DNA from: Trueperaceae bacterium
GTDB lineage: Bacteria; Deinococcota; Deinococci; Deinococcales; Trueperaceae
Assembly: GCA_040905465.1 (NCBI GenBank)
Contig: JBBDRK010000049.1
Span: 192,246 to 256,245, forward strand
Length of the DNA stretch: 64,000 nucleotides
Direction: 5' to 3'
In this document: in pieces, positions 2,626 to 61,416 of the stretch
Position numbering within the stretch: the stretch's first letter is position 1
Layout: every line of letters begins with the position of its first letter
Made by a program: the position numbers and the translations under genes
The notes under the pieces: model-generated
Seen by the model: the letters and a program-made list of their open reading frames with translations, nothing else
Database searches by the model: none
What the model was told of the DNA's origin: nothing

Positions 2626-3891
2626 TCACCTCCGCCGATTCACAGCGAACGGAGTTTCCGCCTGCGGCTTCAGCCAGGGGTCCACCGCCAGCTCGTCGGC
2701 AACCTGTAGCGCCCGGTAGACGCTGCTCATTATCGGCACTGTGAACCGATGCGGCTCGGCGTAGGGAAGGGCGGAGTGCACGCGGTTGGTCAGGAGCACT
2801 GTGACCAGATCGCTATCGGGATCGATGAAGAGCTGCGTGCCGGTAAAGCCTTGGTGGCCGAACGTTCGCGGTGACTCGGACAGTCGATTGGTCCACCATC
2901 CCAGGCCCTGGCCGGGAGTCACCTTGGGCGTCGTGAACCAAGTGGCGATGTCACGCCGCAGCCAGGCTTCGTCCCGACCGAGCACTGCGTCCAACATCGC
3001 CTCCCCCACCTTCACCAGGTCCTCGGCGTTGGCGAACAGCCCGGCATGGCCGGCTACCCCGTTGAATACGAGATGACAGTTGGCATCGTTGACCTCCGCC
3101 TTCAGTACGTGACCACGCCAATTCGGCAAGTCTTTCACCCCCCGCCGCAGGTCTACCGGAAAGGTGCGTTCGGAACACATCCGCTCCTCCATGCGGTTAC
3201 CCAGCGAGGTGGCGGCAGTGCGCTCACGCCAGGCCTCAGGCGGCCGGTAGCGGCTATGTCGGAGATTCAGCGGCCCCGCTATCCGCTCCTCGAACAGCGA
3301 ATCGAGAGCAACTCCAGCCGCCGCCTCTATGAGTTTGCCCAGAACGACGAAATTTGCGTCGCTGTAGCATCTCTGTCGGCCAGGGGTATAGGTTTGGGGA
3401 AGTCGAGCGATCTGCCCCAGAGAGTCGTCGCCGTTGTCGACGAGGAGGTAGAAGGGCAGCCAGTTGGTAAGCCCGGAAGAGTGGGTGAGCAGGTGCGCGA
3501 CGCTGATCTCTCGCTTCCCGGGGCGGTCGAAGGCCGACAAGTATCGGCATATGGGGTCGGTGAGGCGAAGCGCGCCATCCTGGAAAAGCAGCGCTGTCAG
3601 GTTAGCGGTCGACACGGCCTTGCTTATCGAGGCCAGGTCGAAAACGGTGTCGTTTTCCATCGCCCTCGGCACGGGCAGGGGAACAGCGTGACGGTCGAAG
3701 AGTTCAGCATATCCGTAGGCCGCACTCTTGACGACGTTGCCCTCGTGGACCACCAGCAAGACCGCTCCCGCGAAAGCTCCGTCGTCCGCCGCCTCCTGCT
3801 TCAGCAGCCCGGACACCGTCTCGTCCACGGTAACCCACGCTTTGCCGGCCCCCGTTGCGCTCGACCGACCAGGCTCGCTAGACACCGTCAC
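2626..3891 (-). CDS. Serine hydrolase, beta-lactamase/PBP-like family (AmiE-like amidase candidate)
   Basis: FDLASISK (SxxK), LLTHSSG, YSDANF, GHAGLF, GHQGFTGT, LLTNR. No signal peptide. Confidence 0.85.
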   Translation of the reverse strand: MTVSSEPGRSSATGAGKAWVTVDETVSGLLKQEAADDGAFAGAVLLVVHEGNVVKSAAYGYAELFDRHAVPLPVPRAMENDTVFDLASISKAVSTANLTALLFQDGALRLTDPICRYLSAFDRPGKREISVAHLLTHSSGLTNWLPFYLLVDNGDDSLGQIARLPQTYTPGRQRCYSDANFVVLGKLIEAAAGVALDSLFEERIAGPLNLRHSRYRPPEAWRERTAATSLGNRMEERMCSERTFPVDLRRGVKDLPNWRGHVLKAEVNDANCHLVFNGVAGHAGLFANAEDLVKVGEAMLDAVLGRDEAWLRRDIATWFTTPKVTPGQGLGWWTNRLSESPRTFGHQGFTGTQLFIDPDSDLVTVLLTNRVHSALPYAEPHRFTVPIMSSVYRALQVADELAVDPWLKPQAETPFAVNRRR

Positions 3892-4900
3892 CCGCCCCCG
3901 GCCCCTTGGACCATCGCTCGCTCGTCAGCACCGCTCGCGGATTGTCGACAACCATCGTCTCTACGGTTTGTTGCGACACGCCAGCAGCGAGCAGCCGCGG
4001 GACGAATCGTTCCCAAAGGTATGAATACCCCCACTCTCCAATGGTGGCGGCGTTTGACAGGCCTTCGCTCCACAGGATGTCCGAGGACATTACGATCTGC
4101 GAGGCGAAGCCCTGTCGCAGCAGCTCGACCAATACCTTCAGGCGCTCTTCGTCTTCGATGTGATACTCCTCGAGCAAATAGGCATAGCGTTCATAACCCG
4201 CCTGCTGATGTCGGCGGTAGTGAAAGACTTCCTTGCCGATCGTGTCGAACGCGATCGTCACCCCGGTCTTGAGAATCTGCAGGTGATAGGACGGCTGGCG
4301 ATTGAGATCGCAATGACCAATCACGATTCGAGCTGGATCGACTCCGCTCTCGAGAAGTAGATCGGCCTGTTCCCTGCCCATCGTTCCCAGGGTCGTGTGA
4401 GTGGTTATCGGCAGACCCGTAAGGCGATGAGCCTCTGCCGCGGCCAAAAATATTTTCCGCTCGGTCGCTGTGATAGTCCCCTTGCTGCTGCCTACCTTGA
4501 TGATTCCCGGTTTCACGCCGGTATCCTCGATACCCCGTTCAATCTCCTCGACCATGAAGCGGGTTAGCTCGTGGACGTCGGCCTGGTGCGCGAAGGCCGG
4601 GCAAGCAGGCTCCTTGTAGAAGCCGGTCGCGGCGACAATGGTCATGCCGGTCGACGCAGACAGACGTTGCAAAACCCTCGGTTCGCGCCCCTTGCCGTAC
4701 GGCGTGACGTCTACGACTGTCGAGACGCCGTGGTCGCGGAGCTGACGAACCTCGCGTTCCATCACGTCGATGGTCTGAGAAGGTACGAACGCGTGGCGAC
4801 CCGATGACCGGTCCGAGGCACCGCGCGGCGCCAGGTGCTCGTGCATCATCGTCTTGCCCAGCTCGGAAGCCGAAACCGGGCCCGTTACACTCTGAACCAT
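3878..4900 (-). CDS. Phosphotriesterase-family (PTE/PHP) amidohydrolase
   Basis: HEH metal motif, DVTP..GR, ATGFY, IIKVG (carboxy-Lys position), TTHT, IGHCD, SSD, DNP. Confidence 0.9.
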   Translation of the reverse strand: MVQSVTGPVSASELGKTMMHEHLAPRGASDRSSGRHAFVPSQTIDVMEREVRQLRDHGVSTVVDVTPYGKGREPRVLQRLSASTGMTIVAATGFYKEPACPAFAHQADVHELTRFMVEEIERGIEDTGVKPGIIKVGSSKGTITATERKIFLAAAEAHRLTGLPITTHTTLGTMGREQADLLLESGVDPARIVIGHCDLNRQPSYHLQILKTGVTIAFDTIGKEVFHYRRHQQAGYERYAYLLEEYHIEDEERLKVLVELLRQGFASQIVMSSDILWSEGLSNAATIGEWGYSYLWERFVPRLLAAGVSQQTVETMVVDNPRAVLTSERWSKGPGAGDGV

Positions 4901-6473: not shown

Positions 6474-6605
6474 GACTTTCCTCCCAATCTATCTGCTTGC
6501 ATCTCTTCGGTTGTCTGGCTCGAAAGTTCCGGCGGCGATCTCTGCAAGTTCGGTCTCACGCTCCTTCGGGAAGGCTGGCTCGATGCGGCACCAGAAACCC
6601 GGTCA

Positions 6606-7109
6606 TCAGCCCGAGATGGGCCGACCTGGCTTCCGGTATATGCACTCGGTCTGCCCAGTCACGACATAGTCTTCCAGGGCGCCGACCTGATGGTAACCAC
6701 GTCGCTCATAGAAGCGCCGCGCTCTGAGGTTGGTGGCGGTGACCAACAGCAGCACGTCATCATCGTCGCCCAGCAACTCCTCCTCGGCGGCGTCCATGAG
6801 AAGGTCACCGACGCCTTTTGCCTGGTACTCGCGTGCTATTACCAAAAGGCGGATGTAACCGCTCCGTGCGAAGGCTCCGTGCCTCATCAACCACACGAAG
6901 CCCGCCGGCCCGACGTCGCCGTCTGCGACGAGCAGCAGACTGGCACTCTCGGGCATTCGGTCGATCTCGCTGCGCAGACGCGTCGGCGTCGCCCCGTACT
7001 CTGCCAACATCGGATATTCGGTCGCCAGCAGCAGATAACGCTCACTCTCACCGGGAGGACACGCCCTTATGACTATCGGCTGACCCTGCCGCGGCTCCCT
7101 ACACTCCAT
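6606..7109 (-). CDS. GNAT family N-acetyltransferase
   Basis: YQAKGVGDLLM acetyl-CoA motif A, N..ARRFYERRGY. ATG 7109 preceded by GGAG. Confidence 0.85.
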   Translation of the reverse strand: MECREPRQGQPIVIRACPPGESERYLLLATEYPMLAEYGATPTRLRSEIDRMPESASLLLVADGDVGPAGFVWLMRHGAFARSGYIRLLVIAREYQAKGVGDLLMDAAEEELLGDDDDVLLLVTATNLRARRFYERRGYHQVGALEDYVVTGQTECIYRKPGRPISG

Positions 7110-48553: not shown

Positions 48554-48955
48554 GTGGCCAAATTCATAAACGTGCATGACGCCAAGACGCACCTGTCTCG
48601 CATTTTGGATCGGGTCAAGAATGGCGAGGAAATAATTCTGGGCAAGGCGGGGAAACCTTATGCCCGACTTGTTCCGCTCGAAGAGCGCCAGCGCGTGGGA
48701 GCTGGGAATCAAACACCGGCTGGGCAGGCTCGAGGGCGCGGAGTCCGTCCTGGAGGATTTCTCCGGCAACGTGAAACGACTCGGCGCCGGAGCGCTCGAC
48801 ATTACGGCAGAACATGCGTTTGCCGCATCCGCGTTACCACTTCATCACCGCGACCCGTTCAACCGAATGCTTATTGCCCCAGCGCGTGCCGAGAAGCGAC
48901 GTTGATCAGTAGTGACGAGAGGTTCGACCAGTACGAGGTGACGTTGCTTTGGTGA
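48554..48955 (+). pseudogene. Collapsed vapBC toxin-antitoxin locus (Phd/YefM antitoxin N-terminus joined to a truncated, frameshifted PIN toxin)
   Basis: INVHDAKTHLSRILDRV..GEEI..GKPYARLVP, then in another frame SASAWELGIK...HHRDPFNRMLIA, then the tail LISSDERFDQYEVTLLW back in the first frame. Confidence 0.82.
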
Positions 48956-49757: not shown

Positions 49758-50408
49758 ATGAGACAGCTCCGTGTACCGCTGGCGCTGCTGGTGGTCGCTG
49801 CCTGTGCGGCCGGCAACGCACAGGTCTTGCCTGACGGGGTCAGCGAGATACCGTTCCTGTGCGCGGAAGACGGCAGGAATCGTCCCGAACCGGCCAGCGA
49901 GGCGGAGCGACTCGAGGCCGAGCGCCGGGCGCGCTACCGGGCGGTGTTTCCCGCCTACCTCGCGGCCGTGCCGCCGGAACCGGAACCGTCGTTGCTGATG
50001 CCGGTCGCCGGCGTGAGTGTGCGGAGAGTGATCGACACCTGGGGAGGCCTTCGCGACGGCGGTCGGCTCCATGAGGGGCAGGATATCTTCGCTGCGGCCG
50101 GTACGCCGGTGATGGCGGCCGCAGCAGGCTACGTATATCGGATCGGTCCCAACCCCCGCGGGGGTAACGTCGTGGTGGTGGTGGCGGCCGGTGGCCGGCG
50201 CCACTACTATGCCCATCTTCAGGCGTTCGGCGATATCCGCGAGGGCCAGGCCGTGCACGCCGAGACCGTACTGGGTTACGTCGGCGTCACCGGTAATGCC
50301 GCCGGCACGCCTCCGCACCTGCATTTCGGAGTGTACGAGGGACCGGCCGACGCCTGCGACTGGAACGCCATCGATCCACTGCCGATGCTGGTCGATCGGT
50401 CGCCCTGA
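49758..50408 (+). CDS. M23 family metallopeptidase
   Basis: HEGQD, YYAHL, HLHF, signal peptide. TACAAT 6 nt before the ATG. Confidence 0.9.
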   Translation: MRQLRVPLALLVVAACAAGNAQVLPDGVSEIPFLCAEDGRNRPEPASEAERLEAERRARYRAVFPAYLAAVPPEPEPSLLMPVAGVSVRRVIDTWGGLRDGGRLHEGQDIFAAAGTPVMAAAAGYVYRIGPNPRGGNVVVVVAAGGRRHYYAHLQAFGDIREGQAVHAETVLGYVGVTGNAAGTPPHLHFGVYEGPADACDWNAIDPLPMLVDRSP

Positions 50409-50509: not shown

Positions 50510-52636
50510 TTACTTGAGGATCCCACCGAACGTCATCTGGCCGATTGTCGAGGGAAAGTTATACGTGAAGGTATGGAACCAGACGGTCTCCTCATCCGTT
50601 GTCACGCTCATCCCAAAATTTCGGCGGTTGACGTGAGGGTCCCACTGTTCCTTCAGGAGCACCTGCCAGAGTGCATCCCCGGATCGGTTGTACTTCTTGA
50701 TGACGAGATCTTCGTTTACTCCTTCCGCGGTGCCGACCACGTACAAGTCGCCATGCGCGTCAAGCGCGATGTCTTCAAAGTTTGCCCGGAGGAATTGACT
50801 TCCCCAAACATCGTTCCAGAGTTCTGTGCCCGAGCTTGTGACCTTCATCAATATGGCTCCAGTATTCGTATTGACGAAAGTTCCGGCGAGGTAGACATCA
50901 CCGTCTTCATCGATCTGGATCCGCCGAATCTCCATTGATGGCTCATATGTCTGCGTGTGGTACTGCTGGTACCACTGTGGGCTGCCGTCAGAACTGAATT
51001 TCTGAATGAAGAAGCTGTTGTCTAATTGAGCGGGATCCGTGTAGTGGGGGTCGCGCCGGCCGGCCACGTAGAAGCTTCCATCGCCAGGATCCGCCGCCAC
51101 ACGCTGCACTGTCCAGTCTCCTGCGTCGTAGTAAACAGCCTCTTGTTGCGCGTAGGTGTGATAGTTTCGCCAAAGTTCGGTACCTGCATGATTGAATTTG
51201 GCGGCGATTGCTCCTGAACTCCGTATGCCTGGAGAGTGGCCGCAGCAGCGGGCGAAGCTACCGGCCAGGATGACGCTGCCGTTGCTGTCAACACTTACGG
51301 CGGAGTGATAGTGAGTAGTACTGCTTCCGTCTGCGTGCTCTCGGTAGATCGGTTCAACGACCGTCCAAATGGGGGCGCCATCGCTATCGTACTTGTGTAA
51401 CTCGTATTGAACGCCTGGATTCGTGTCGATCCCCTTCGTCACAAGAATAATAATGTCGTTGGTGGCAGGGTCGAACGCCACGTCCAGCAACCCCAAGCTC
51501 GTGCCGACCGGCCTCTCGAGCGCGAGCCTTGACCACACGGTCTCGCCGCTACGGGTGAGCTTCTTGATCTGTATGCCAACCGCCGTGCTTTCCGCAAAGT
51601 ATAAGTGGCCGTCCGTGCCCGCCTCGAGCAGGAAGGGGCTGTAGGGACTGTCGGAGTCGCCCACTTCCCATAGCGTAGGCTCACCGGTTCCGCCGCCAGT
51701 GGCGCCATCTACTACCAGTATCTGTACGCTGTCGTGTCCACTTCGGCCAGAGGAATCCGTGACCTCTGCGGTTATCACGTGCTCCCCAGCCGACAGCTCA
51801 TCCACGTCGATGCTCGTCCCCTGACCCAAATCGCCGTCTATGCTGGAACTCCAAAGGATGGATGCGGACAAGTTGCCGTCCTCCAGGTCGGTAGCCGTCG
51901 CCAGAAAACTAACGGTTTCGCCGGTAGCATAGTCAGTGCCGTCGTCGGGTTGCTCAACGACCACTGATGGAGTGGTATTGGCAGCACCGGTCGCAATATG
52001 CAGTTTGACAGGAAGGAACCGCGCCGCCACCACGTCGACCACCTTCGCCTCGGCAGTTGTGTTACCGCGCGCCCCTGGCTGCTGCCTTCTTGCTTGTCCC
52101 AGGTTCTGCCACAACTGCAGGTCGACGAACGCCACACAGCCCGCATCTACATTGGCAGTAGCAGGATTGCAGGCGGGCTGATCCTCTGGCGCGTTGGCCA
52201 AGCGGAACTCAATTCGAACCGAGGCTCCGTCGCTACGATTGAGTGCCTTGGTATCCAACTTCGCGAAGTAGTGCTCTTCGACCTCAGGGACGTTCGTCAC
52301 GACAATCGTTCCATCGACTGTCGAATAGCGTGGCCCGACAGGAGCTCCAAATGCCTCTTGCGTAACCGGATCGAGATCAAAGACCGCCAGGAACAGGCCC
52401 ACGCTGTCGTCGAAGTTGCCCGTCAACACCTCTCCGTGGCCAAGAGGGGGCTGGAAAGCTACAGCCGCGACGCTATCAATTGCCTGCGTGCCGAAATTTG
52501 ACGCATCGTTCGTCACGCTACATCCAGCCATGCCCAAAAGAGCCAGTAGTAAGACAAGAGCATGCAAGATTAACCGGGCGTTGGTGAGGTGCCAGCGACG
52601 CAAAAAGACCATTTTCGATGCCACGGACCATCGCAT
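50510..52636 (-). CDS. Surface lipoprotein with an Ig/PKD-like domain and beta-propeller (SBBP-like) repeats
   Basis: Lipobox LLGMAGC; ATATDLEDG...WSSSIDG...GEHVITAEVTDSSG; repeats VDSNGSVILAG, IDEDGDVYLAG, LDAHGDLYVVG. Start codon uncertain. Confidence 0.72.
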   Translation of the reverse strand: MRWSVASKMVFLRRWHLTNARLILHALVLLLALLGMAGCSVTNDASNFGTQAIDSVAAVAFQPPLGHGEVLTGNFDDSVGLFLAVFDLDPVTQEAFGAPVGPRYSTVDGTIVVTNVPEVEEHYFAKLDTKALNRSDGASVRIEFRLANAPEDQPACNPATANVDAGCVAFVDLQLWQNLGQARRQQPGARGNTTAEAKVVDVVAARFLPVKLHIATGAANTTPSVVVEQPDDGTDYATGETVSFLATATDLEDGNLSASILWSSSIDGDLGQGTSIDVDELSAGEHVITAEVTDSSGRSGHDSVQILVVDGATGGGTGEPTLWEVGDSDSPYSPFLLEAGTDGHLYFAESTAVGIQIKKLTRSGETVWSRLALERPVGTSLGLLDVAFDPATNDIIILVTKGIDTNPGVQYELHKYDSDGAPIWTVVEPIYREHADGSSTTHYHSAVSVDSNGSVILAGSFARCCGHSPGIRSSGAIAAKFNHAGTELWRNYHTYAQQEAVYYDAGDWTVQRVAADPGDGSFYVAGRRDPHYTDPAQLDNSFFIQKFSSDGSPQWYQQYHTQTYEPSMEIRRIQIDEDGDVYLAGTFVNTNTGAILMKVTSSGTELWNDVWGSQFLRANFEDIALDAHGDLYVVGTAEGVNEDLVIKKYNRSGDALWQVLLKEQWDPHVNRRNFGMSVTTDEETVWFHTFTYNFPSTIGQMTFGGILK

Positions 52637-52751
52637 ACTTTCCCCTCTCGAAGCGCTTTCGCGCCTTCTAACCCGTCCAACAGGAGCCTCGACCGAGAGA
52701 ATCCTCTCGTTCTCGTTCCTCTTGCCTTGCCCACGATCGGACACCCGATAA

Positions 52752-52797
52752 AGCCTATGATCACGACTCCGTCCAATGCCCGTCCACGAACCGTCCA
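52752..52797 (-). promoter_or_regulatory. SARP-type activator promoter: 3x TGGACGG at 11-bp period plus -10 TAGGCT
   Basis: Plus-strand CCGTCCA at 52769, 52780 and 52791; -10 at 52757-52752. Confidence 0.7.
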
Positions 52798-52879
52798 GTA
52801 CAAGCACGAACACCGCAGCCCCACAACGGTTGCGGTTGGCCAAGTCAGTGGTAGCGATACTCCTGAGGCGACCCCAGGC

Positions 52880-55855
52880 TTATTTCGCAGTAGGCAGGTC
52901 GCCAAGACCCACCACGGAAGTCATCAGCAGATCAACCGGCAGGCTGGCACCGCGAGCGATCTCGACCTTCGCTTGGGCCGCCCCGAGCTGCCGAACCAGC
53001 CTCGAGTGCAGACGTTCGGCGCGTTGCTTGCCCCACACCGGAGTAGCATTGTGCGCGGTAATCGCACCGACGAGCACCCCGGCCCTGGTATGCTCTCCTC
53101 GCTCGAGATACAGATCGGCAAGCCACGGCAGGACCCAGAACAGCGTCAGCCAGTTCCGCGTTCGCCACGGTGGATGCAGCGCCTCTCGAAAGCTGTCATC
53201 GGCTTCGTCGAGCCTGCCGTCGCGCAGTGCGAAGCGGCCGAGCATCCCCTGCAACATCGCCAAGCTCATCTGCTCGCCGCTCGCCCGCGCCTGCGGTGTG
53301 GCCTCGCCACAAACGTAGCGCGCCTCGGCGATCAACGCCTCGTCGGCCTCGGCCAGGCCCAACTCGAAGAGTGCGTGTGTGAGCTGTGACTTCAGCAGGG
53401 GGATGGTGCCTGCGTACCCTATCTCTTCGCTGACCTGAATGCCGAGCCGGACGTCATCGCGGGCCCGCTGCCACTCCTCCAGGCAGATGTAGATGGCCCC
53501 GGAGCACATCAGCGTGGCGACAAGATCCATGCTCCTGGGAATCCGGCCGGTTTCATACAGGCTCAAGGCCTCCTTGGCGTGCTCGAGCGCCGGACCGAGC
53601 TCACCGAGGAATCCTTCGGCATACGCTGTGCTCACGAGGAACCGATTCAGCCTCACCGGATCGTCGTCCCGTTCACGCGCATAAGCGAGTCCTTCCAGGG
53701 CAGGTGACAGCGAGTCGTGGTAGCGACCGCCGAAGAAAAAGGACTGCGCGAGGAGATCCAGTCCCCGCATCAGCTCCACCTCGGATCCGGGAGCTCGAGC
53801 GAGTTCGACCGCACGGGCAGCGTTCCTCATCGCCAGCTCGACGTCGCCTACCAAGCGGCTGAGCCAGGCATGGCTCACCAGCAGGCTGGACAGCGCTCTC
53901 TCGGTCTTGGGGCGCGTAACCGGTAGCTGCTCGATCGCCCCGCCGAACACCCTGATGCCGTCATGGAAGCGCCCGCTTTGCGGGAAATACCAGAGGAGCG
54001 GCTCGCTGAGAAGCAACAGCTCTTCGCTGCGCTCATTCGCCACCGCCCAATCGAAAAACGCCAGCAGGTTGCTCTCTTCTTCAGCCAGGAGTGCGAACAG
54101 CTCTGCGAACGCCGCGCCATGCGCTTGCGCCTGCGTCCTCATGAGGAGTTCGGTGAAGTAAGCACCGTGCTTCTCCAGGGCCTCGCTCTCCTCCAGCGGG
54201 TGCTGCGACAGCATCTCGCGCGTGAACTGGGCAAGCAGCGCGTGCTGGTCGAAGCGCCCGTCCGGCAGCACGCGTAGGAGGGACTTGTCCACCAGGCCTA
54301 CCAGGTCGGGTATGGTCGCCCCCGCCACCACCGCCGCCGCCTCACGTCGGAAACCACCGCGAAAGACTGCAAGTCGCCGAAGCACAACCTGCTCACGCGC
54401 CGTCAGCAAATTCCAGGAGTGCTGAAAGGCGCTCAAGAGGCTTCGATGCCGCGTACTCACGTCACGCAACGTAGTATCGAGTACCGTCACGCTCTCCTCG
54501 AGCGTAGCGGCGAGATCGGCCAGAGGCATCGCCCGAACCCACGCCGCCGCCAACTCCACGCCAAGCGGGAAGCCGTCCACGGCACGACAGATCCTCAGCA
54601 CGAACGGTAAGTCGGCTGCGGTCGGCGCAAACGACAGCCGCACTCGTTTGGCCCTCTGCACGAACAGGTTTACTGCGTCACCGGCAAGAGCATCGGTGAG
54701 GCCCGCCTCGTCGTCGGGCACAGGAAGGCCGTCGAGAGTCAGCAGCCACTCCGCTGTCAGGTTCAGGCGTTCCCGCGAGGTGACCAGCAGCGTCAACTCC
54801 GGGCAGCCGCTCAACAAGTCGTTCAGCCGAGGCGCGACCGAGATCAGATGCTCGGCGTTGTCGAGGACGAGGAGCAGCCGCCGGTTCGCCAGTTGTTCCA
54901 CCAGCAACACCCAAGGATCGCTGGATGCCAGCGGCGGCAGCGCCAGCGCAGAAGCGATCGCATGCGGCAACTGTTCCGGGTGCGTGAGCGCCTCCAGCGG
55001 TACGAATGCCGTGCCCTCGGAAAACGCCGGTTCCCCCAAGTGTTCATACGCCGCCTGCACGGCCAACCGCGTCTTCCCGACCCCGCCGGCACCGTGTACG
55101 GTGAGCAGGCGGCAGTTTCGATAGGCGAGGGCGCCGGCGATCTCGACGAGCTCCAGGTCCCGCCCGACAAGCGGGGTATTCAGCTCGGGAAGAGTGTGCC
55201 GAACGGATACCCCTTCGAAGACGGGTACGGCTTTCGCTTCGGCATCTACATCGATGCCGAAGCGTGCGGCGTCCTCGCGAACTTCCGCCGCCCTGCCGTC
55301 ACCAACGGCCTGGAACAACCGGTAGAGGCGATTGAGATCGTGCGGCTCCGGTTCGGACGCCTCCGTGAGCGTATACGCCCAGCGGCAATGTCGTGCCGCA
55401 GGCTCGCGTTCTCCGCGAGCCAGTGCCGCTTCGGCAAGATGCAAAAGGGCTCCACGGACCCGCTTGGCCAGGTACTCGCGCGTGGCATAGACCCACTCTT
55501 CGAGCTCTCCAAACAGAGCCGTTCCGAGGCCCTCGACGAATGGACCCTTGTACAGCTCGAGCGCCCTCTCGTACTCGCCGGCATCCAACAGGGTCAGGAG
55601 TTCGTTGGCATCACAGGGCAACGTGCATGCCAGGAAACCTTCGTCGACTGCGATGGCTTCGGCCGAGCTTCCAAGCCTCCGGACCGTCGTCGACAGGGAA
55701 TCAGCAGGATCCTTTGCCTCGGCGAAGAACAGTTCGGCCATGAACTTACGCGGCTTCCGACCCTCCAACGCCAGGTACGTGAGCAGCAGCAGAGGTTTCG
55801 GACGCGTCAACCCGCTCCCAGGAATCTGGAGCCGTCCAAGCGCATTGATTTGCAT
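52880..55855 (-). CDS. SARP/AfsR-like regulator: wHTH-BTAD, STAND (NB-ARC-like) ATPase, TPR-like repeats
   Basis: KPLLLLTYLAL, DSLSTTVRRL, YKGPF, GAGGVGKT, LLVLDNAEH, VTSR, GFPLGVELAA, helical C-terminus. Confidence 0.88.
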   Translation of the reverse strand: MQINALGRLQIPGSGLTRPKPLLLLTYLALEGRKPRKFMAELFFAEAKDPADSLSTTVRRLGSSAEAIAVDEGFLACTLPCDANELLTLLDAGEYERALELYKGPFVEGLGTALFGELEEWVYATREYLAKRVRGALLHLAEAALARGEREPAARHCRWAYTLTEASEPEPHDLNRLYRLFQAVGDGRAAEVREDAARFGIDVDAEAKAVPVFEGVSVRHTLPELNTPLVGRDLELVEIAGALAYRNCRLLTVHGAGGVGKTRLAVQAAYEHLGEPAFSEGTAFVPLEALTHPEQLPHAIASALALPPLASSDPWVLLVEQLANRRLLLVLDNAEHLISVAPRLNDLLSGCPELTLLVTSRERLNLTAEWLLTLDGLPVPDDEAGLTDALAGDAVNLFVQRAKRVRLSFAPTAADLPFVLRICRAVDGFPLGVELAAAWVRAMPLADLAATLEESVTVLDTTLRDVSTRHRSLLSAFQHSWNLLTAREQVVLRRLAVFRGGFRREAAAVVAGATIPDLVGLVDKSLLRVLPDGRFDQHALLAQFTREMLSQHPLEESEALEKHGAYFTELLMRTQAQAHGAAFAELFALLAEEESNLLAFFDWAVANERSEELLLLSEPLLWYFPQSGRFHDGIRVFGGAIEQLPVTRPKTERALSSLLVSHAWLSRLVGDVELAMRNAARAVELARAPGSEVELMRGLDLLAQSFFFGGRYHDSLSPALEGLAYARERDDDPVRLNRFLVSTAYAEGFLGELGPALEHAKEALSLYETGRIPRSMDLVATLMCSGAIYICLEEWQRARDDVRLGIQVSEEIGYAGTIPLLKSQLTHALFELGLAEADEALIAEARYVCGEATPQARASGEQMSLAMLQGMLGRFALRDGRLDEADDSFREALHPPWRTRNWLTLFWVLPWLADLYLERGEHTRAGVLVGAITAHNATPVWGKQRAERLHSRLVRQLGAAQAKVEIARGASLPVDLLMTSVVGLGDLPTAK

Positions 55856-56101
55856 TACGAGTGTAGTTTACGCCTACTCGCTACCGTAAAGTGCCGTTCT
55901 ATCAGCGTTCCACTGGCGATACCTCGCTCGGCAAAACCCGTTGCCGGCACTTCTGTAGCACTCACTGCTCTGTCATGCCGCTACGGTCACGTGACATCCG
56001 GCGATTTGGGGTGTGCAAGGCCCATTCCACGCACTACCGAAGGCCTGAACTCTGCCCTGACTGGGCCTTGTGCGAGGATGAAATGTTGCTTACACTCCCT
56101 T

Positions 56102-59089
56102 ATGTATCTTCGGACACTAGGGGGCCTAGTGCTCGAAGGCAGTACGCTGCGTCGTCCCAAGCCACTTCTCCTGCTGGCGTACCTCTCCCTCGAGGGCCCA
56201 AAGAGTCGACGGCAGTTGGCAGAGTTGTTCTGGATGGATTCCAAGGACCCACGGGACAGCCTCAGCACGACGATACGGCGACTCAATGTGGGTGGGCAGG
56301 TAACTCTGCTGACAAGCGGCGACCGGGTGGAGACCAGCGTCCTCTGCGACGCCGTCCGATTCCAGCAGTCAGCGAATACCGAGGCGCCAGCAGTGTTGCT
56401 GGAACTCTATACCGGTACCTTCCTCGACGGCATCGACGCCGCGCTCGGAGAAGAGATTGAGGAGTGGCTGTACGCTACTCGCGAGCGGCTGGCCCAACTT
56501 GCCCGGCGAGCGCACCTCGAGATGGCCGCCACCTTCTTGGAAGCGGAGAATATACAGGCCGTCGCACTCCACGCGGAGTCCGCCTTGGACGTCGAGCAGG
56601 CCCCGCCGTGGAACTTTAGGGAACTTGCCGAGGTCACGCGACTCCTCCAGGCCAGTGACAGCCCACGCAGCCGCGAAGCGATTCGAGAGACTCGCGAGAT
56701 GGGCATTTCACTCTCTCACGATAACGATCCGGCCCGCCGGAAGAGGGTCGAGGCCGTCGACCTGCCTCGCGTGGGGACGTCGTTCGTCGGCCGTCACGTG
56801 GAACTGGCGGCGATCGTCGCGGCGCTAGCAACACCCCACATTCGCCTACTCACGCTGCATGGGGCGGGCGGGGTCGGCAAGTCTCGGCTGGCAATCGAGG
56901 CCGCACGCCGTGCCGTCCACGACGCTCACACTCAAGACGGCGCCTATTTCGTGGCGCTCGAAACGGTGCCCGATCCGACAGGTGTTGCCGCCGCCATAGC
57001 CGGCGGCATGCGGTTGATCCTGGCTGCCGACAGACCGCCGGAGCAACAGGTGATTCAAGCGATCGGAGCGAACCCTACACTGCTGGTGCTCGACAACGCA
57101 GAGCACCTCGTCGACAGCAGACCCTTCCTGTCAGCCATCCTGCGCCAGTGCCCCAATGCGCGCCTGCTCGTCACCTCGAGGATCAGCCTCAATCTTGCAG
57201 AAGAGCACGTAGTGAGCGTCGAAGGGCTGGAGCTGAACTCCCCATCTGGCGAAGGGGCCGCCGTCCACCTCCTATACGAGCGCATGAGGCAACACGGGTC
57301 ACTCGAGCGACTCACGTCCGACGAGAAATGGACGGCGTCGCAGGTTTGCCGACTGCTCGATGGCACGCCGCTTGCTATTGAGCTCGCGGCTGCACTCACG
57401 AGAGTCATGCCCCTCTCGGAAATCGCGCGGGAACTCGAAACCGGCCTCGAGGTGTTGGTGAACCAGGATCCGACGGCAGGCCCGCGGCACCGCAGCCTTC
57501 ACGCCGCCCTCGACGTGTCCTGGAACCTGCTCGCCGCCCCCGAGAAGCGAGCGCTCGCTCGACTCTCGGTCTTCGAAGGTGGCTTCAGCCGAAACGCCGC
57601 AAGCGCCGTCGCAGGTGTCGAAGCTAACGTACTTGCCGTCCTCATCGACGCCTCTCTGCTGCGGCTCCTTCCGTCCGGCAGATACGCGTGGCATCCCTTC
57701 ATCAGGCACCATGTCAGCCTCAAGCTTGCCGAACGCCCGCAGGAGGAGGCTGTCCGCAAGCGTCACGCCCGGTACTACCTGGAACTGGTCGGATCACACG
57801 ACCACGACATTCTCGGCGCCACCGCAATGGGCACGGCCCTGTGGATCGAAGAGGAGTTCGCAAACCTCAGAAGCGCCTGGGCGTGGGCGGTGGAACAGGG
57901 TGACTTCGACCGGATGTGCCGTTCTGCCTGGCCACTGGTTCACTTCGCAGAGATGCGTGGCCGCTTCGGCGACGTAGCAACGTTCTTCGAGCAGGCCGCG
58001 GCCGCCCACTCCACACGTGCTCTAGACGAACCCGGGCGTCGCGCGCTCGGCAACATTCTCGGTTGCAATACGTTCCTGTCGTTTAGACTCGGCCGCTACG
58101 AAGCCGCGCTCGAAAGCGGGGAGGCTTCTCTCGATCTGCTCGGTACGCTGCAGCCGCGCGACGGAAACTGGGGTGTGTGGGCGGCACGCCAGGGCCTGGC
58201 GGTCGCTAACGCCTACCTCGGTAGGCTGGACGAGGGTCTCCGGTACGTTACCGAGAACATCGTAATGACCGAAGCCGATCACAAGTTGGTAGGGCGTGAC
58301 GAGCGCCTTCGTCGTATCGTCGAGGTAATGGCCGGAACATCGCACGAGACGGTAGCGGCTATTGCTATCCAGGGCGGTTCCTACAGTCAGGCACTGAAGC
58401 ACCTCGGCCCCGCCGTACGTTTGCTCGAACCGCACGGGGCGTATGGACTCGGGTACGTCTACTGGAGCCTGGGTCAAGCCCACCTGGGAATCGGGTCCGT
58501 CGCCGAGGCGAAGGCGTACCTGGAGGAGGGCTTGCGGTTCGCCCACCAAACGGGATTCCAGACACAAGTAGGCTACCTCCTCAACGAGTTGGCCCGGGTG
58601 CACCTGGCGCTCGGCGACGTGCCCCGAGCCGAGTCGACCTGCCTCGAGGCCCTCGGCCTCGCGCTCGCTAGCGGCGACGCAGCACTGGAGACCGGAGCGC
58701 GTGCAGCCTACGGGCGCGCTGCCCTGATCGACGGGCGCTTCGCCGACGCCCGCGACCGACTGGTGTCGGCGGCAGCAGCAGCGCGGGCCTACTCTTGCTA
58801 TCCATTCGCCATCGAGGCGTTAGAGGGCCTTGCAGACCTCGACGTGAAGGACGGAAGGATCGAGGAGGCTATTAGGCTGCTGGCTTTCGTGAAGCACTCA
58901 TCCTTCACGCTGGAGGCAAAGGCGAGCGCAGCGGCGACGTCTCTGCGCGCGCTCAAGGAGGGCGTGCCGGAAGCTGCATTTAGTGCGGCGTACCGCCAAG
59001 GCGAGGCGGCAACACCCGAGCAGGCGTTCTCCGTTGGCGGCTGGCCGTGGACTACTCGCCCCGCTCGTACTCCCGTGAACCCAAGGTAA
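56102..59089 (+). CDS. SARP/AfsR-like regulator paralogue: wHTH-BTAD, STAND ATPase, TPR-like repeats
   Basis: ATG 56102 (MYLRTLGG). KPLLLLAYLSL, DSLSTTIRRL, GAGGVGKS, LLVLDNAEH, GTPLAIELAA, TPR helices. Confidence 0.88.
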   Translation: MYLRTLGGLVLEGSTLRRPKPLLLLAYLSLEGPKSRRQLAELFWMDSKDPRDSLSTTIRRLNVGGQVTLLTSGDRVETSVLCDAVRFQQSANTEAPAVLLELYTGTFLDGIDAALGEEIEEWLYATRERLAQLARRAHLEMAATFLEAENIQAVALHAESALDVEQAPPWNFRELAEVTRLLQASDSPRSREAIRETREMGISLSHDNDPARRKRVEAVDLPRVGTSFVGRHVELAAIVAALATPHIRLLTLHGAGGVGKSRLAIEAARRAVHDAHTQDGAYFVALETVPDPTGVAAAIAGGMRLILAADRPPEQQVIQAIGANPTLLVLDNAEHLVDSRPFLSAILRQCPNARLLVTSRISLNLAEEHVVSVEGLELNSPSGEGAAVHLLYERMRQHGSLERLTSDEKWTASQVCRLLDGTPLAIELAAALTRVMPLSEIARELETGLEVLVNQDPTAGPRHRSLHAALDVSWNLLAAPEKRALARLSVFEGGFSRNAASAVAGVEANVLAVLIDASLLRLLPSGRYAWHPFIRHHVSLKLAERPQEEAVRKRHARYYLELVGSHDHDILGATAMGTALWIEEEFANLRSAWAWAVEQGDFDRMCRSAWPLVHFAEMRGRFGDVATFFEQAAAAHSTRALDEPGRRALGNILGCNTFLSFRLGRYEAALESGEASLDLLGTLQPRDGNWGVWAARQGLAVANAYLGRLDEGLRYVTENIVMTEADHKLVGRDERLRRIVEVMAGTSHETVAAIAIQGGSYSQALKHLGPAVRLLEPHGAYGLGYVYWSLGQAHLGIGSVAEAKAYLEEGLRFAHQTGFQTQVGYLLNELARVHLALGDVPRAESTCLEALGLALASGDAALETGARAAYGRAALIDGRFADARDRLVSAAAAARAYSCYPFAIEALEGLADLDVKDGRIEEAIRLLAFVKHSSFTLEAKASAAATSLRALKEGVPEAAFSAAYRQGEAATPEQAFSVGGWPWTTRPARTPVNPR

Positions 59090-59267
59090 CGGTGCGGCAA
59101 CCGCGTGTCGCACGTCAAACGCCAAGCAGAGCTCTGCGGGAAGCTCCGAGGTCTCGAGCAATTACTTGCGCGCTCCGGCCTCCCCTCGACCGGTCATGCG
59201 CTTGCCCACTGGGCGGACGACGCTCGGTTCGACCAACCCGCAACTCCTCCTACAGCGGACTACGCAA

Positions 59268-60398
59268 TTACTCGTTCTGCGGTTCGTATTGAAGGTCTAC
59301 GCCGCGGTCCAGCAACGCCTGAATCTGTTGCTGCACAGTGGGGTCATTGAGATCGAGAGAGTTTCCCGTTACGTCGACAAAGTCTCCTTCGCCGATACCT
59401 GCGTTGTCGACGAGAAAGCCGAGGTCGATCAGGTCGTTGTCGTCTACGATCAGCAATTCCAGTTCGCTGAAATCGCGAAGGAAGTCGACATCGGCATTTG
59501 CCAGCCCAAGCGAGTACACTCGCAACTGCTTCAGCTCGCTGAGCCCTTGGATGGGGGTGAGATCGACCACGCCGGACCCGCCGATGTCGAGTTCGAAGGA
59601 AAGCATCGCCATGCCCTCGAGGACGGAGAGGTCCGTGACCCCCGCGTTCCCCCACAGCTGCAGGCGCACCAGGTTCTTGTCGGCCAGAAGCGCCATATCG
59701 CCATCGTCGAACCCGGTACCGCCGGCGAGCAACGCGCTGAGATCGGTCATGTCTTCAATTACCGAGAAGTCTTCCAGGTCTGGGTTGTGGTTCACCCACA
59801 AAAAGGTAAGCTCCTTGCCCTCCAGCACGCTCAGATCCGTAAGTCCCATATCGCTGGCCCCGAAGAAGGTCAGATTCGGGAAGTTGTCGACAACAGAGAT
59901 GTCGCTCGTCGGGTTACCGCCCAGAACAACCCACTGCAGCTTGGTAAGGGGCGCGAGCACGGAGAAATCCTCGATCTGGGCATTCCACAGAAACAGGGTA
60001 TCGAGTTCGGTAAGACCGGTGACAGGAGTGATATCGGCAATTGGATTGTCGTCGAGATGGAGAGCCTCGAGCGACGTCAGTTCGGCGAGTGGAGAGAGAT
60101 CCTCGATCTCGTTCCGTTCAACCGCCAAGCCAGTGAGGTTGCTCGCATACTGCAGCCCCTGGAGGCTCTGGATCTCTTGATCTCTGGCTATGAGCAGGGT
60201 GAGTGCCTCGAGGTCGTCGCAAGTAGGCTCTGCAGAGAGCTCCAGTGCGTTCTGGACCGCCGTTGCCAGATTGGAATCCTCTAGAGGAGTGTTGGAGGGG
60301 CTACTGCAGGCGTTCGCCGTGCCCGAGGGAGTGTTCGTACAGCTGGCAAGCAGCAGCGACGAAATGAGCAAACTACACAGTGTCGTAGGCAGTCGCAT
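59268..60398 (-). CDS. Internalin-like leucine-rich-repeat lipoprotein
   Basis: Lipobox LLLASC, cap EDSNLATAV, 22-aa LRRs (LTSLEALHLDDNPIADITPV). AGGAGG RBS. Confidence 0.88.
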   Translation of the reverse strand: MRLPTTLCSLLISSLLLASCTNTPSGTANACSSPSNTPLEDSNLATAVQNALELSAEPTCDDLEALTLLIARDQEIQSLQGLQYASNLTGLAVERNEIEDLSPLAELTSLEALHLDDNPIADITPVTGLTELDTLFLWNAQIEDFSVLAPLTKLQWVVLGGNPTSDISVVDNFPNLTFFGASDMGLTDLSVLEGKELTFLWVNHNPDLEDFSVIEDMTDLSALLAGGTGFDDGDMALLADKNLVRLQLWGNAGVTDLSVLEGMAMLSFELDIGGSGVVDLTPIQGLSELKQLRVYSLGLANADVDFLRDFSELELLIVDDNDLIDLGFLVDNAGIGEGDFVDVTGNSLDLNDPTVQQQIQALLDRGVDLQYEPQNE

Positions 60399-60420
60399 AG
60401 AACCTCCTGGATTTCAGGGA

Positions 60421-60465
60421 ACAGTACGACGCCCGATCCGACCGCGGTCCGACCACGCTCCGACC
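60421..60465 (-). promoter_or_regulatory. SARP-type activator promoter: 3x GGTCGGA at 11-bp period plus -10 TACTGT
   Basis: Plus-strand TCCGACC at 60437, 60448 and 60459; -10 at 60426-60421. Confidence 0.72.
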
Positions 60466-60543
60466 GCGAGAGTGTTGCCCACATGTGCCCTCGCTTGGCA
60501 ACGGGGACTGGCGAGGTATGAGGGGCGGGGTAGTACTGACCGC

Positions 60544-61416
60544 TCAGCGCGGAAACAGCGTTGCCATCTCCCGTCGTTCCACCAACGACTGCATCTCCTC
60601 GTCGCCGGGGCGCTGGCCGCTGTCCTCGCTGAGCCGGGCCGCCGCGTCCAGCACCTTCGGCAGCACGTGAATATCGCCGACGCTGTTCAGGAACAAGGCG
60701 GGCCTGCTCAGCACCCAACGCACAGCCAGATCGATGTCCGGCTGCTCCTCGAGAGGTTCGTACCAGGTCGCGCGGTTCGGCTGCCGGTCTCCCCACGGCG
60801 CCGCGGTGATCGCCTTGATGGTCTGTACCGCCACGTCGCGTTCACGGCAGATCGTCACCAGCGCCTCGAAATCGGCCGCATACTTCGCATCCTGCATCAC
60901 CGTGAAGTTGTACGGCAGCAGCACAGAGTCGAAATCGAATCGCTCCAGGCTTTGCAAGTGGCGTTCCGCTACCGCCAGCCCATGGCCCGTCACGCCGATC
61001 CGGTCCACGAGCCCCTCGTCGCGTGCTTCGACCGCGGCCTCCAGTGCGCCTCCCGGCCCCAGCGCCCGGTCCCACTCGACGGAATCGACCAGGTTGTGCA
61101 GCTGGATCAGGTCGACGCGGTCGACACGCAGGCGTTCCAGTGAACGGCGAATCTCGTCTCTTGCCTCGGCGTATTCGCGCTCGCCGGTCTTTGTGGCCAG
61201 AAAGATGTCATTGCGATTGTGCTCGAGCCAGGGGCCCAGCCGCAGCTCCGAGTCGCCGTAACTGGCGGCAGTGTCGATATGGTTCACGCCGAAGCGGGAA
61301 ATCAGCTCCATGGTCCGGTCGGCGTCCGCTTGAGTGACGTTGCTCAAGGCGGCTGCGCCGAAGATGGTTCGGCTGCTTTGATGATCGGTTCGGCCGAAGC
61401 GTTCTCTGGGAATCAC
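60544..61416 (-). CDS. Aldo/keto reductase
   Basis: [30 protein letters not shown]. Confidence 0.9.

Follow-up and report, generated by a model that had tools for sequence, protein, structure and literature searches.

The window considered here is a stretch of 64,000 nucleotides (G000:C49:192246-256245) from the genome of a Trueperaceae bacterium, designated G000 (3,534,856 bases, 65% GC), in which two genes for large regulators, RegA and RegB, are bracketed by two lipoprotein genes whose promoters carry the same arrangement of triple direct repeats. An initial annotation, drawn from the sequence alone, had described the regulators as paired proteins of ~990 aa with near-identical recognition helices, in a host that was likely a member of the Deinococcota. 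The sizes and helices are confirmed in the list below, and the host assignment is borne out by the nearest relatives, which are mostly metagenome-assembled genomes (MAGs) of Trueperaceae and Deinococcota. The features of the locus, in the order of their coordinates, are the following.

50510-52636, minus strand: target gene 1, SBBP beta-propeller lipoprotein of 708 aa, lipobox ..GMAGC (read by eye)
52752-52757, minus strand: putative -10 box 1, TAGGCT, 11 nt downstream of operator 1
52769-52796, minus strand: operator 1, GGACGG three times at an 11-bp period (52769-74, 52780-85, 52791-96)
52880-55855, minus strand: RegA gene, 991 aa, carrying DSLSTTVRRL
55856-56101, no strand: RegA/RegB intergenic region, between the divergent starts
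56102-59089, plus strand: RegB gene, 995 aa, carrying DSLSTTIRRL
59268-60398, minus strand: target gene 2, leucine-rich repeat (LRR; internalin-like) lipoprotein of 376 aa, lipobox LLLASC
60421-60426, minus strand: putative -10 box 2, TACTGT, 11 nt downstream of operator 2
60438-60465, minus strand: operator 2, GGTCGG(A) three times at an 11-bp period

RegA and RegB are divergently oriented paralogues sharing 32-33% identity. The RegB start is the ATG at 56102, inside a longer artefactual open reading frame (ORF) of 1413 aa, and not the upstream end of that ORF. RegA is followed on its own strand by the SBBP gene, and the LRR gene is convergent with RegB. Translation of the SBBP gene begins at the ATG at 52636 behind GAGGGG, after a leader of ~110 nt; the LRR gene has AGGAGG 5 nt ahead of its ATG and a leader of ~17 nt. 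A palindromic hairpin (52694-52709, CGAGAGAATCCTCTCG) with a 6-bp stem and no U-run on the mRNA strand can be found in the leader of the SBBP gene, and could be a leader structure in its mRNA. Both genes had initially been annotated as encoding lipoproteins, one with Ig and beta-propeller domains, the other with LRRs. The LRR assignment stands (Pfam LRR_4, 2.7e-18, internalin-like models also matching under their cut-offs) and the beta-propeller is recovered more weakly (NCBIfam NF047494, SBBP lipoprotein, 1.1e-20, under the model cut-off; Pfam SBBP, 0.005), but the Ig domain was not confirmed by the Pfam search.

Site 1 (52752-52796, minus strand) reads GGACGG-N5-GGACGG-N5-GGACGG-N11-TAGGCT and site 2 (60421-60465, minus strand) GGTCGG-N5-GGTCGG-N5-GGTCGG-N11-TACTGT, so that the promoter geometry proposed earlier (three cores, 11-bp period, 11 nt, TAnnnT) is found at both. 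The spacers vary among the units at both sites; the cores are identical. None of 100 shuffles of the window reproduces the pattern, even with 1 mismatch tolerated. In the whole G000 genome, the bare GGWCGG triple occurs exactly twice, both times at these promoters, against ~0.01 expected from hexamer frequencies, and its relaxation yields 2 further matches at 1 mismatch and 11 at 2 mismatches. A consensus scan returned no consensus -35/-10 promoter in 52500-53000 or in 59000-60600. Assuming that the -10 box occupies -12..-7, the units would lie at -29..-19, -40..-30, and -51..-41, with 17 nt from unit start to -10 start. Inspection of 55856-56101 by eye revealed no phased repeats, nor is there any match in this interval in the genome-wide motif-free scan described below; hence, nothing points to autoregulation by way of this motif.

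The N-terminal region of RegA (residues 1-230) was modelled with AlphaFold 2 (AF2) on a 24-sequence alignment. The model (pLDDT 89.6) exhibits an N-terminal beta-sheet, three helices, a beta-hairpin wing, and a helical bundle. When it is compared with the PDB by Foldseek, six matches reach E<=0.001, and all are chains of the AfsR SARP domain (8hvr, 8k60) or of EmbR (2fez, 2ff4), with TMq values of 0.62-0.66 in four of them and 0.39-0.40 for two 2ff4 chains; no other fold appears at E<0.04, the next matches being generic tetratricopeptide repeat (TPR) proteins at E>=0.05. The structural alignment with AfsR spans the entire SARP domain (247 columns). On the resulting domain map, a SARP-fold winged helix-turn-helix (wHTH) together with a putative BTAD occupies residues 1-200, the wHTH lying at residues 1-80, i.e., at the extreme N-terminus. 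Pfam detects no receiver domain ahead of the wHTH in RegA or RegB, so that neither has the make-up of an OmpR/PhoB response regulator. P0002, an 80%-identical homologue, bears the BTAD family PF03704 in precomputed Pfam, and one homologue is already labelled 'SARP family transcriptional activator' by JGI. The SARP identity of RegA and RegB is clear at the level of the modelled fold and weak at the sequence level. The wHTH assignment of the initial annotation is upheld by the fold, AfsR and EmbR being the sole strong PDB matches, and a BTAD is likely.

Beyond this domain, RegA harbors an NB-ARC-type nucleotide-binding oligomerization domain (NOD, ~232-550; Walker A G255-K261, D332, H538) and a TPR array (~553-982). 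The full-length model (pLDDT 85.1) displays a P-loop NOD and a long TPR array, with all-helical repeats over 553-982, and its Foldseek matches comprise 6mfv (STAND-TPR; best, E 2.3e-9), plant NLR resistosomes, CED-4, Apaf-1, Avs3, and LGN with other TPR structures. Pfam places AAA_22 on the NOD (8.8e-9), with NACHT and NB-ARC matches under their cut-offs. Residues G255, G258, G260, K261, D332, and the MHD-like H538 are invariant in 30/30 aligned homologues; the Asp after the His of the MHD motif is not kept (H-A in RegA, H-P in the consensus). RegB has the same architecture, with NB-ARC and NACHT matches and with TPR_MalT (3.4e-8) and TPR_12 (2.1e-6), both below their cut-offs. The NB-ARC-like STAND and TPR modules annotated earlier are therefore supported by the full-length fold matches and by the invariant motif residues.

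The association of SARP, NOD, and TPR modules in one polypeptide is also that of AfsR from Streptomyces coelicolor, whose SARP domain matches best in structure (E 4.6e-5, TMq 0.66). In SARP targets, according to PMC10936776 and PMC11301090, direct repeats are spaced by 11 or 22 bp and the last of them, on the 3' side, lies 8 bp from the -10 box; the afs box covers a poor -35 box with two 11-bp repeats (-40..-30 and -29..-19), the -10 box of afsS being CACTGT. The same papers agree with the SARP rule taken as established in the initial annotation (phased repeats over the -35 region, near the -10 box). With WCGGNNN taken as the heptamer at the RegA/RegB locus, the units are separated by 4 nt and the last of them lies 8 nt from the -10 box, equal to the published rule. 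The 11-bp direct repeats of AfsR, like those found here, lie on one DNA face over -40..-19, with a -35 box that is weak or absent and a -10 box such as CACTGT; the two proximal units here hold the positions of the afs box, and the MHD-like His, of which an autoactive variant has been made in AfsR, is kept both in AfsR and in the RegA/RegB homologues. In contrast, identity in the SARP domain is only 16-18%, the AfsR operators have two units where those of the RegA/RegB locus have three with the core GGWCGG, and AfsR acts in Actinomycetota on afsS and antibiotic clusters, whereas in Trueperaceae the targets would be lone neighbouring genes that encode lipoproteins or exported proteins. Judging from sequence, RegA and RegB are analogues or distant homologues of AfsR, not orthologues.

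Other known systems share one or another part of this design. The small SARPs (DnrI, ActII-ORF4, VlmI, FdmR1, and PimR), whose heptamer is TCGAGXX, differ from RegA/RegB in having no NOD/TPR modules and in being encoded within biosynthetic gene clusters. Three-repeat sites are known for all five (PMC10972967) and, as here, the three direct repeats have an 11-bp spacing and overlap the -35 region. EmbR from Mycobacterium tuberculosis (2fez/2ff4, E ~2-3e-4) has the wHTH and BTAD fold of RegA but, unlike RegA, a C-terminal FHA domain, control by a kinase, and no STAND or TPR module. The STAND activators MalT and GutR, as well as PH0952 (6mfv), have the ligand-gated STAND switch logic expected of RegA/RegB; MalT differs by its C-terminal LuxR-type HTH and by its promoter geometry, and the part of 6mfv matched by RegA is devoid of a DNA-binding domain.

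The recurrence of the promoter architecture was examined in 364 genomes of the phylum and in 128 genomes of the host's family (f1). The regulator N-terminal domain can be found in 109/128 family genomes, with up to 17 matches per genome, a count that includes genome G324, on which no claim rests; regulator matches in the family number 378, of which 30 + 80 loci were analysed. Bare GGWCGG triples number 24 in the family versus 5 for the reversed control. Among the 27 GGWCGG registers outside G000, 3 have TAnnnT and 1 has CAnnnT exactly 11 nt downstream, and 2 more have TAnnn[AG]. All 8 geometry-positive GGWCGG sites are homotypic (AAA or TTT), and an A follows GGTCGG in 11/12 units. Two of the five geometry-positive loci examined directly adjoin a RegA homologue: in G140 the site is 49 bp from the homologue and divergent, and in G361 it stands just past the regulator 3' end, as in the RegA/SBBP arrangement. 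The G307 site drives the gene of an FN3-LRR lipoprotein that shares 34% identity with the product of LRR target gene 2. The scan of 30 regulator loci yielded triples of TATCGG, GATCGG, and GGACGG with CAnnnT at 11 nt adjoining regulators, together with a TGATCG/GATCAG triple near a regulator, for which the CACAAT at 11 nt was resolved in the motif-free scan; locus L047 of G324, among these 30, gave no match. The pattern WCGG-N7-WCGG-N7-WCGG-N11-YANNNT has 22 matches in the 128 genomes versus 12 in the control, and 8/22 are within 5 kb of a regulator.

A motif-free scan covered 80 regulator loci (1.006 Mb; resampled loci among them being L073=L045, L083=L053, L119=G252:C96, L124=G140, and L109=G361) and retained three units with >=5/7 identical columns followed by YANNNT at a fixed offset. 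It gives 23 matches at the true offset versus 9-14 at offsets >=5. Six of the 23 fall in the 200-bp divergent window upstream of a regulator, which makes up 0.79% of the space searched (binomial P 2e-8, although this and similar P values are overstated since the family genomes are kin and not independent, which weakens the case), and the count in this divergent window drops to 0-2 at offsets >=4. The 80 loci contain 4 exact WCGG triples, and 3 of them have YANNNT at the expected offset, with none at 19 other offsets. Under strict criteria, the same approach applied to the whole G000 genome gives 5 matches at the true offset versus 0-3 elsewhere. Next to paralogous regulators in other genomes of Trueperaceae and Deinococcales, this arrangement is built from distinct hexamers (GGTGAC, GTTGAC, TTTAGT, GGGCAG, GATCAG, and others).

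Further sites of this kind came to light in the vicinity of other regulators. A third triple-repeat promoter of G000 (C53, ~3715-3760, minus strand: TGTTGAG three times, 11 nt, CACACT) lies upstream of a gene for a 142-aa membrane protein, 2.2 kb from a small SARP that is detectable by Pfam (Trans_reg_C and BTAD; C53:6026-6607, plus strand, one in-frame TGA). G000 also contains at least 9 further BTAD ORFs over the Pfam cut-off, several of ~1000-1100 aa. In another Trueperaceae MAG (L073 ~6530-6625 = L045 3607-3661), five to six 11-bp units GGTTA[CT]G are followed by 11 nt and CACCCT, the regulator being 1.4 kb off. Three loci from different MAGs (L092, L138, and L152, ~3885-4040) have in common GGGCAG three times, 11 nt, and CATCGT, ~4 kb upstream of a regulator; this site drives a conserved secreted protein of ~240-260 aa without a Pfam family (checked for L092), and it looks like an orthologous, conserved operator.

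The recognition helix co-varies with the operator hexamer. All regulators paired with xxWCGG have the helix D-x-L-[STG]-[TS], and the ending RRL is present in 4/5 of those paired with GG-WCGG, while GATCGG and TATCGG pair with helices ending in RGL, GYL, or RLM. At both GTTGAC loci, the helix is SLR[TV]A[IV][NS]QL. Three proteins of G000 have this N-terminal domain, and only RegA and RegB have a helix of the xxWCGG class, that of the third paralogue, on C69, being NSLSVALSQL and of a different class. An assignment of GGACGG and GGTCGG to RegA or RegB from the helix residues was set aside, as these do not discriminate between the two.

The genes downstream of such sites encode mostly exported proteins, signal peptides and lipoboxes having been read by eye, with no predictor and with one protein of the first set partly masked, which counts against too firm a use of the figures that follow. 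In the first set, a lipobox or a signal-like N-terminus is seen in 10/10 downstream genes; these are the two G000 targets, an RCC1-propeller/InlB-repeat lipoprotein, a SnoaL-like protein, a PhnD-like lipoprotein, the FN3-LRR lipoprotein, an OsmC-like protein, and three family-less proteins. In the second set of 19 further sites, 13/19 products look exported or membrane-bound, including a LysE exporter, a PKD/Big lipoprotein, and an alpha/beta hydrolase; the remainder consists of one cytoplasmic-type methyltransferase and five that are unclear or without an ORF. The 'surface interaction or adhesion' targets of the initial annotation are thus retained in so far as the products are mostly exported; in the relatives they are exported proteins in general and not only adhesin-like ones. 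The PhnD-like lipoprotein gene (L040, G306:C87) is preceded at 6551-6686 by two tandem GGACGG triple-repeat promoters 91 bp apart, with -10 boxes TAGCAG and TAGCCT, and a link to phosphate or phosphonate supply is possible.

From the modelled fold, the operators, and their recurrence, RegA and/or RegB probably activate both lipoprotein promoters directly through the repeats. They would be AfsR-like 'large SARP' activators in which a SARP domain is combined with an NB-ARC-type STAND switch and a TPR sensor. At rest, each protein would be an ADP-locked, autoinhibited monomer, and binding of an intracellular ligand to the TPR array would lead to nucleotide exchange and oligomerization. The SARP domains would then be aligned side by side on one DNA face over the three 11-bp units GGWCGGNNNNN, from ~-51 to -19, where they would make up for the -35/sigma region-4 contact that is missing and bring RNA polymerase to the lone -10 box (TAGGCT or TACTGT). 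As an outcome, one lipoprotein gene would be turned on per promoter, SBBP beta-propeller and LRR, respectively. By proximity, RegA would act on the GGACGG promoter and RegB on the GGTCGG(A) promoter. The data support a class-II activation module of the SARP kind, new both in its phylum and in its regulon, for which we infer binding, activation rather than repression, the regulator-promoter pairing, the ligand, and what the lipoproteins do. The regulator-promoter link proposed earlier gains from independent comparative evidence, namely adjacent sites and helix co-variation.

A number of observations weigh against this proposal. At the sequence level, Pfam Trans_reg_C has no match at E<=10 in RegA or RegB, and BTAD PF03704 reaches E 7e-4 in RegA (20.4 bits vs the 22.1-bit cut-off) and has no match in RegB. 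HMMER comparison of RegA and of an N-terminal profile with PDB sequences gives only unrelated weak matches (FlhD, E 0.012; a spike-derived construct, E 0.022). The NCBIfam AfsR equivalog NF053617 matches RegB over residues 206-550, i.e., the NOD only, at 62.2 bits (2.4e-17) for a cut-off of 1430 bits, and has no match in RegA at E<=1. The enrichment looked for following the initial annotation is present for G000 (2/2 sites at the locus), for the family (24 vs 5), and as regulator-adjacent clustering, but phylum-wide the bare GGWCGG triple shows no excess (29 vs 29 for the reversed control) and is confined to f1 in its enrichment. Even within the family, the WCGG pattern is only ~2-fold over control; WCGG triples with 1 mismatch have a weak offset peak (4 at the true offset vs 0-3 elsewhere); and a strict adjacent site is found in only ~6/79 regulators. 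Under the loose motif-free criterion, there is no excess genome-wide in G000 (8 at offset 0 vs 6-13 elsewhere). Geometry-positive sites also occur away from regulators, with none within 10 kb in G297 and the G306 site on an 8-kb contig, and the C69 paralogue has no triple repeat in its 3.8-kb locus. Since the RegA and RegB helices differ only by V/I, proximity is what pairs A with GGACGG and B with GGTCGG. Finally, the module is absent from both congeners, G287 and G288, so that there is no orthologous footprint: no GGWCGG triple is found there, the best N-terminal identity is 44-45%, and neither an LRR-lipoprotein orthologue nor synteny was detected, only a 33-aa match in G288. The latter, an open frame of 33 aa (L153, G288:C46, 1501-1599), shares 64% identity with the LRR lipoprotein at its C-terminus and may be either a remnant or a C-terminal motif common to both. 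Close relatives of RegA were also sought in metagenomes, where 0/64 pattern matches were confirmed, which supplied no orthologous promoter for footprinting. A check of sequencing runs turned up no RNA run that covers the locus. On this evidence, the RegA/RegB module looks species-specific.

Other explanations of the locus have to be set against direct activation by RegA and/or RegB. OmpR/PhoB-type regulators also bind 10-11-bp direct repeats in place of a -35 box, and the repeats could be boxes of an unlinked response regulator of this type, with the SARP-STAND genes as coincidental neighbours. G000 does have no fewer than 10 classical Trans_reg_C proteins with the size of a response regulator, the G306 site drives a PhnD-like phosphonate-binding lipoprotein, typical of a Pho regulon, and no SARP-STAND gene accompanies the G297 site within 10 kb. 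A global regulator should however have more than two sites, and the only two of G000 flank RegA/RegB; moreover, the sites are concentrated within the 200 bp divergently upstream of SARP-STAND genes, and the hexamer changes along with the recognition helix of the neighbouring regulator, which makes such an origin unlikely. It is a shade less likely still that RegA and RegB bind the repeats so as to repress or block transcription across the -35 and spacer positions, a ligand relieving the repression. The operator indeed covers these positions, which are usually occupied by repressors according to the AfsR paper (PMC11301090). Against this, no consensus promoter was found and there is no -35 element to occlude, helical phase and -10 distance are fixed across hexamer classes, as expected for contact with RNA polymerase, and SARPs are described as activators in PMC10972967, PMC11301090, and PMC10936776.

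The match of the full-length model to Avs3, among other STANDs, and the presence of a Phd/YefM antitoxin gene 4 kb off might be taken to indicate an antiviral STAND (Avs-like) defence module, with the wHTH as effector and the lipoprotein genes unrelated. This seems very improbable, as PADLOC matched 0 families for RegA, RegB, and both lipoproteins, the N-terminal domain has the fold of a transcription activator with no nuclease or other killing domain, and the matching operators point to gene control. A sensor that answers infection by turning on surface proteins is compatible with these findings. Lastly, plain 11-bp GGWCGG tandem arrays without a -10 box do exist (e.g., in G067, G269, and G349), as would be expected if the repeats were chance or neutral tandem duplications without function. 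This is hardly credible for the two sites considered here, where the spacers differ while the cores are identical, where the shuffles and the genome-wide expectation given above leave little room for coincidence, and where the same -10 distance is found with two different cores and again in several other genomes.

The module is flanked by genes for ABC transporters, an M23 peptidase, a Phd antitoxin, and an aldo-keto reductase. The Phd/YefM-type antitoxin gene (48554-48955, plus strand; Pfam 2.3e-9) and the M23 peptidase gene (49758-50408, plus strand; Pfam 6.5e-23) are located just upstream of the module. On the other side, the aldo-keto reductase gene (60544-61416, minus strand) ends 78 bp upstream of the LRR-gene operator; the gap (60466-60543) is without a terminator-like site, and read-through from this gene into the LRR gene is therefore possible.

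With regards to novelty, a 2024 review has SARPs 'exclusively found in actinobacteria' (PMC10972967), and a 2026 survey of AfsR-like proteins covers Actinomycetota and no further. The literature search returned no description of SARP/AfsR-like regulators, or of this operator, in Deinococcota; the 'SARP' of a Thermus/Deinococcus comparison (PMC1274311) was rejected, being an unrelated apoptosis-related domain and not this family. Possession of a BTAD as such is not restricted to Actinomycetota: Pfam BTAD has a match of any kind in 8/14 control genomes, E. coli, B. subtilis, Thermus, and Deinococcus among them, and one over the cut-off in 7/14. The novelty claim is tempered accordingly by these matches, in Deinococcus and Thermus among others, and by the SARP label given by JGI to one homologue. 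The proposed mechanism is that already known for SARPs. The new elements lie in the phylum, in how far the sequences have diverged, in the family size, in the wiring of one regulator to one adjacent exported protein, and in the readable relation between helix and hexamer.

In the papers cited above, SARP/AfsR-like activators are treated as antibiotic and developmental regulators of Actinomycetota. The present locus would extend SARP promoter logic to the Deinococcota, where it would be carried by proteins too divergent for Pfam thresholds and wired to genes for lipoproteins and exported proteins. A broader view, which is possible though doubtful at this stage, is that, in the Trueperaceae, divergent AfsR-like NLRs have multiplied to form a scheme of 'one sensor, one private operator, one exported protein'. 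Each STAND-TPR would recognize its own intracellular cue, in the manner of bacterial STAND pattern-recognition receptors; the cue may be a phage or foreign protein, and the response would be to turn on the adjacent surface or secreted protein without killing the cell. The hexamer would co-evolve with the helix, and RegA/RegB would be a duplicated instance in which the A and T classes, GGACGG(G) and GGTCGGA, insulate the two channels. For the family, the comparison gives a predicted operator code, relating helix residues to hexamers, and with it a route from sequence to the regulons of hundreds of uncharacterised NLR-like regulators. The RegA/RegB locus would thereby be a tractable example of a bacterial NLR that acts through the transcription of cell-surface proteins.

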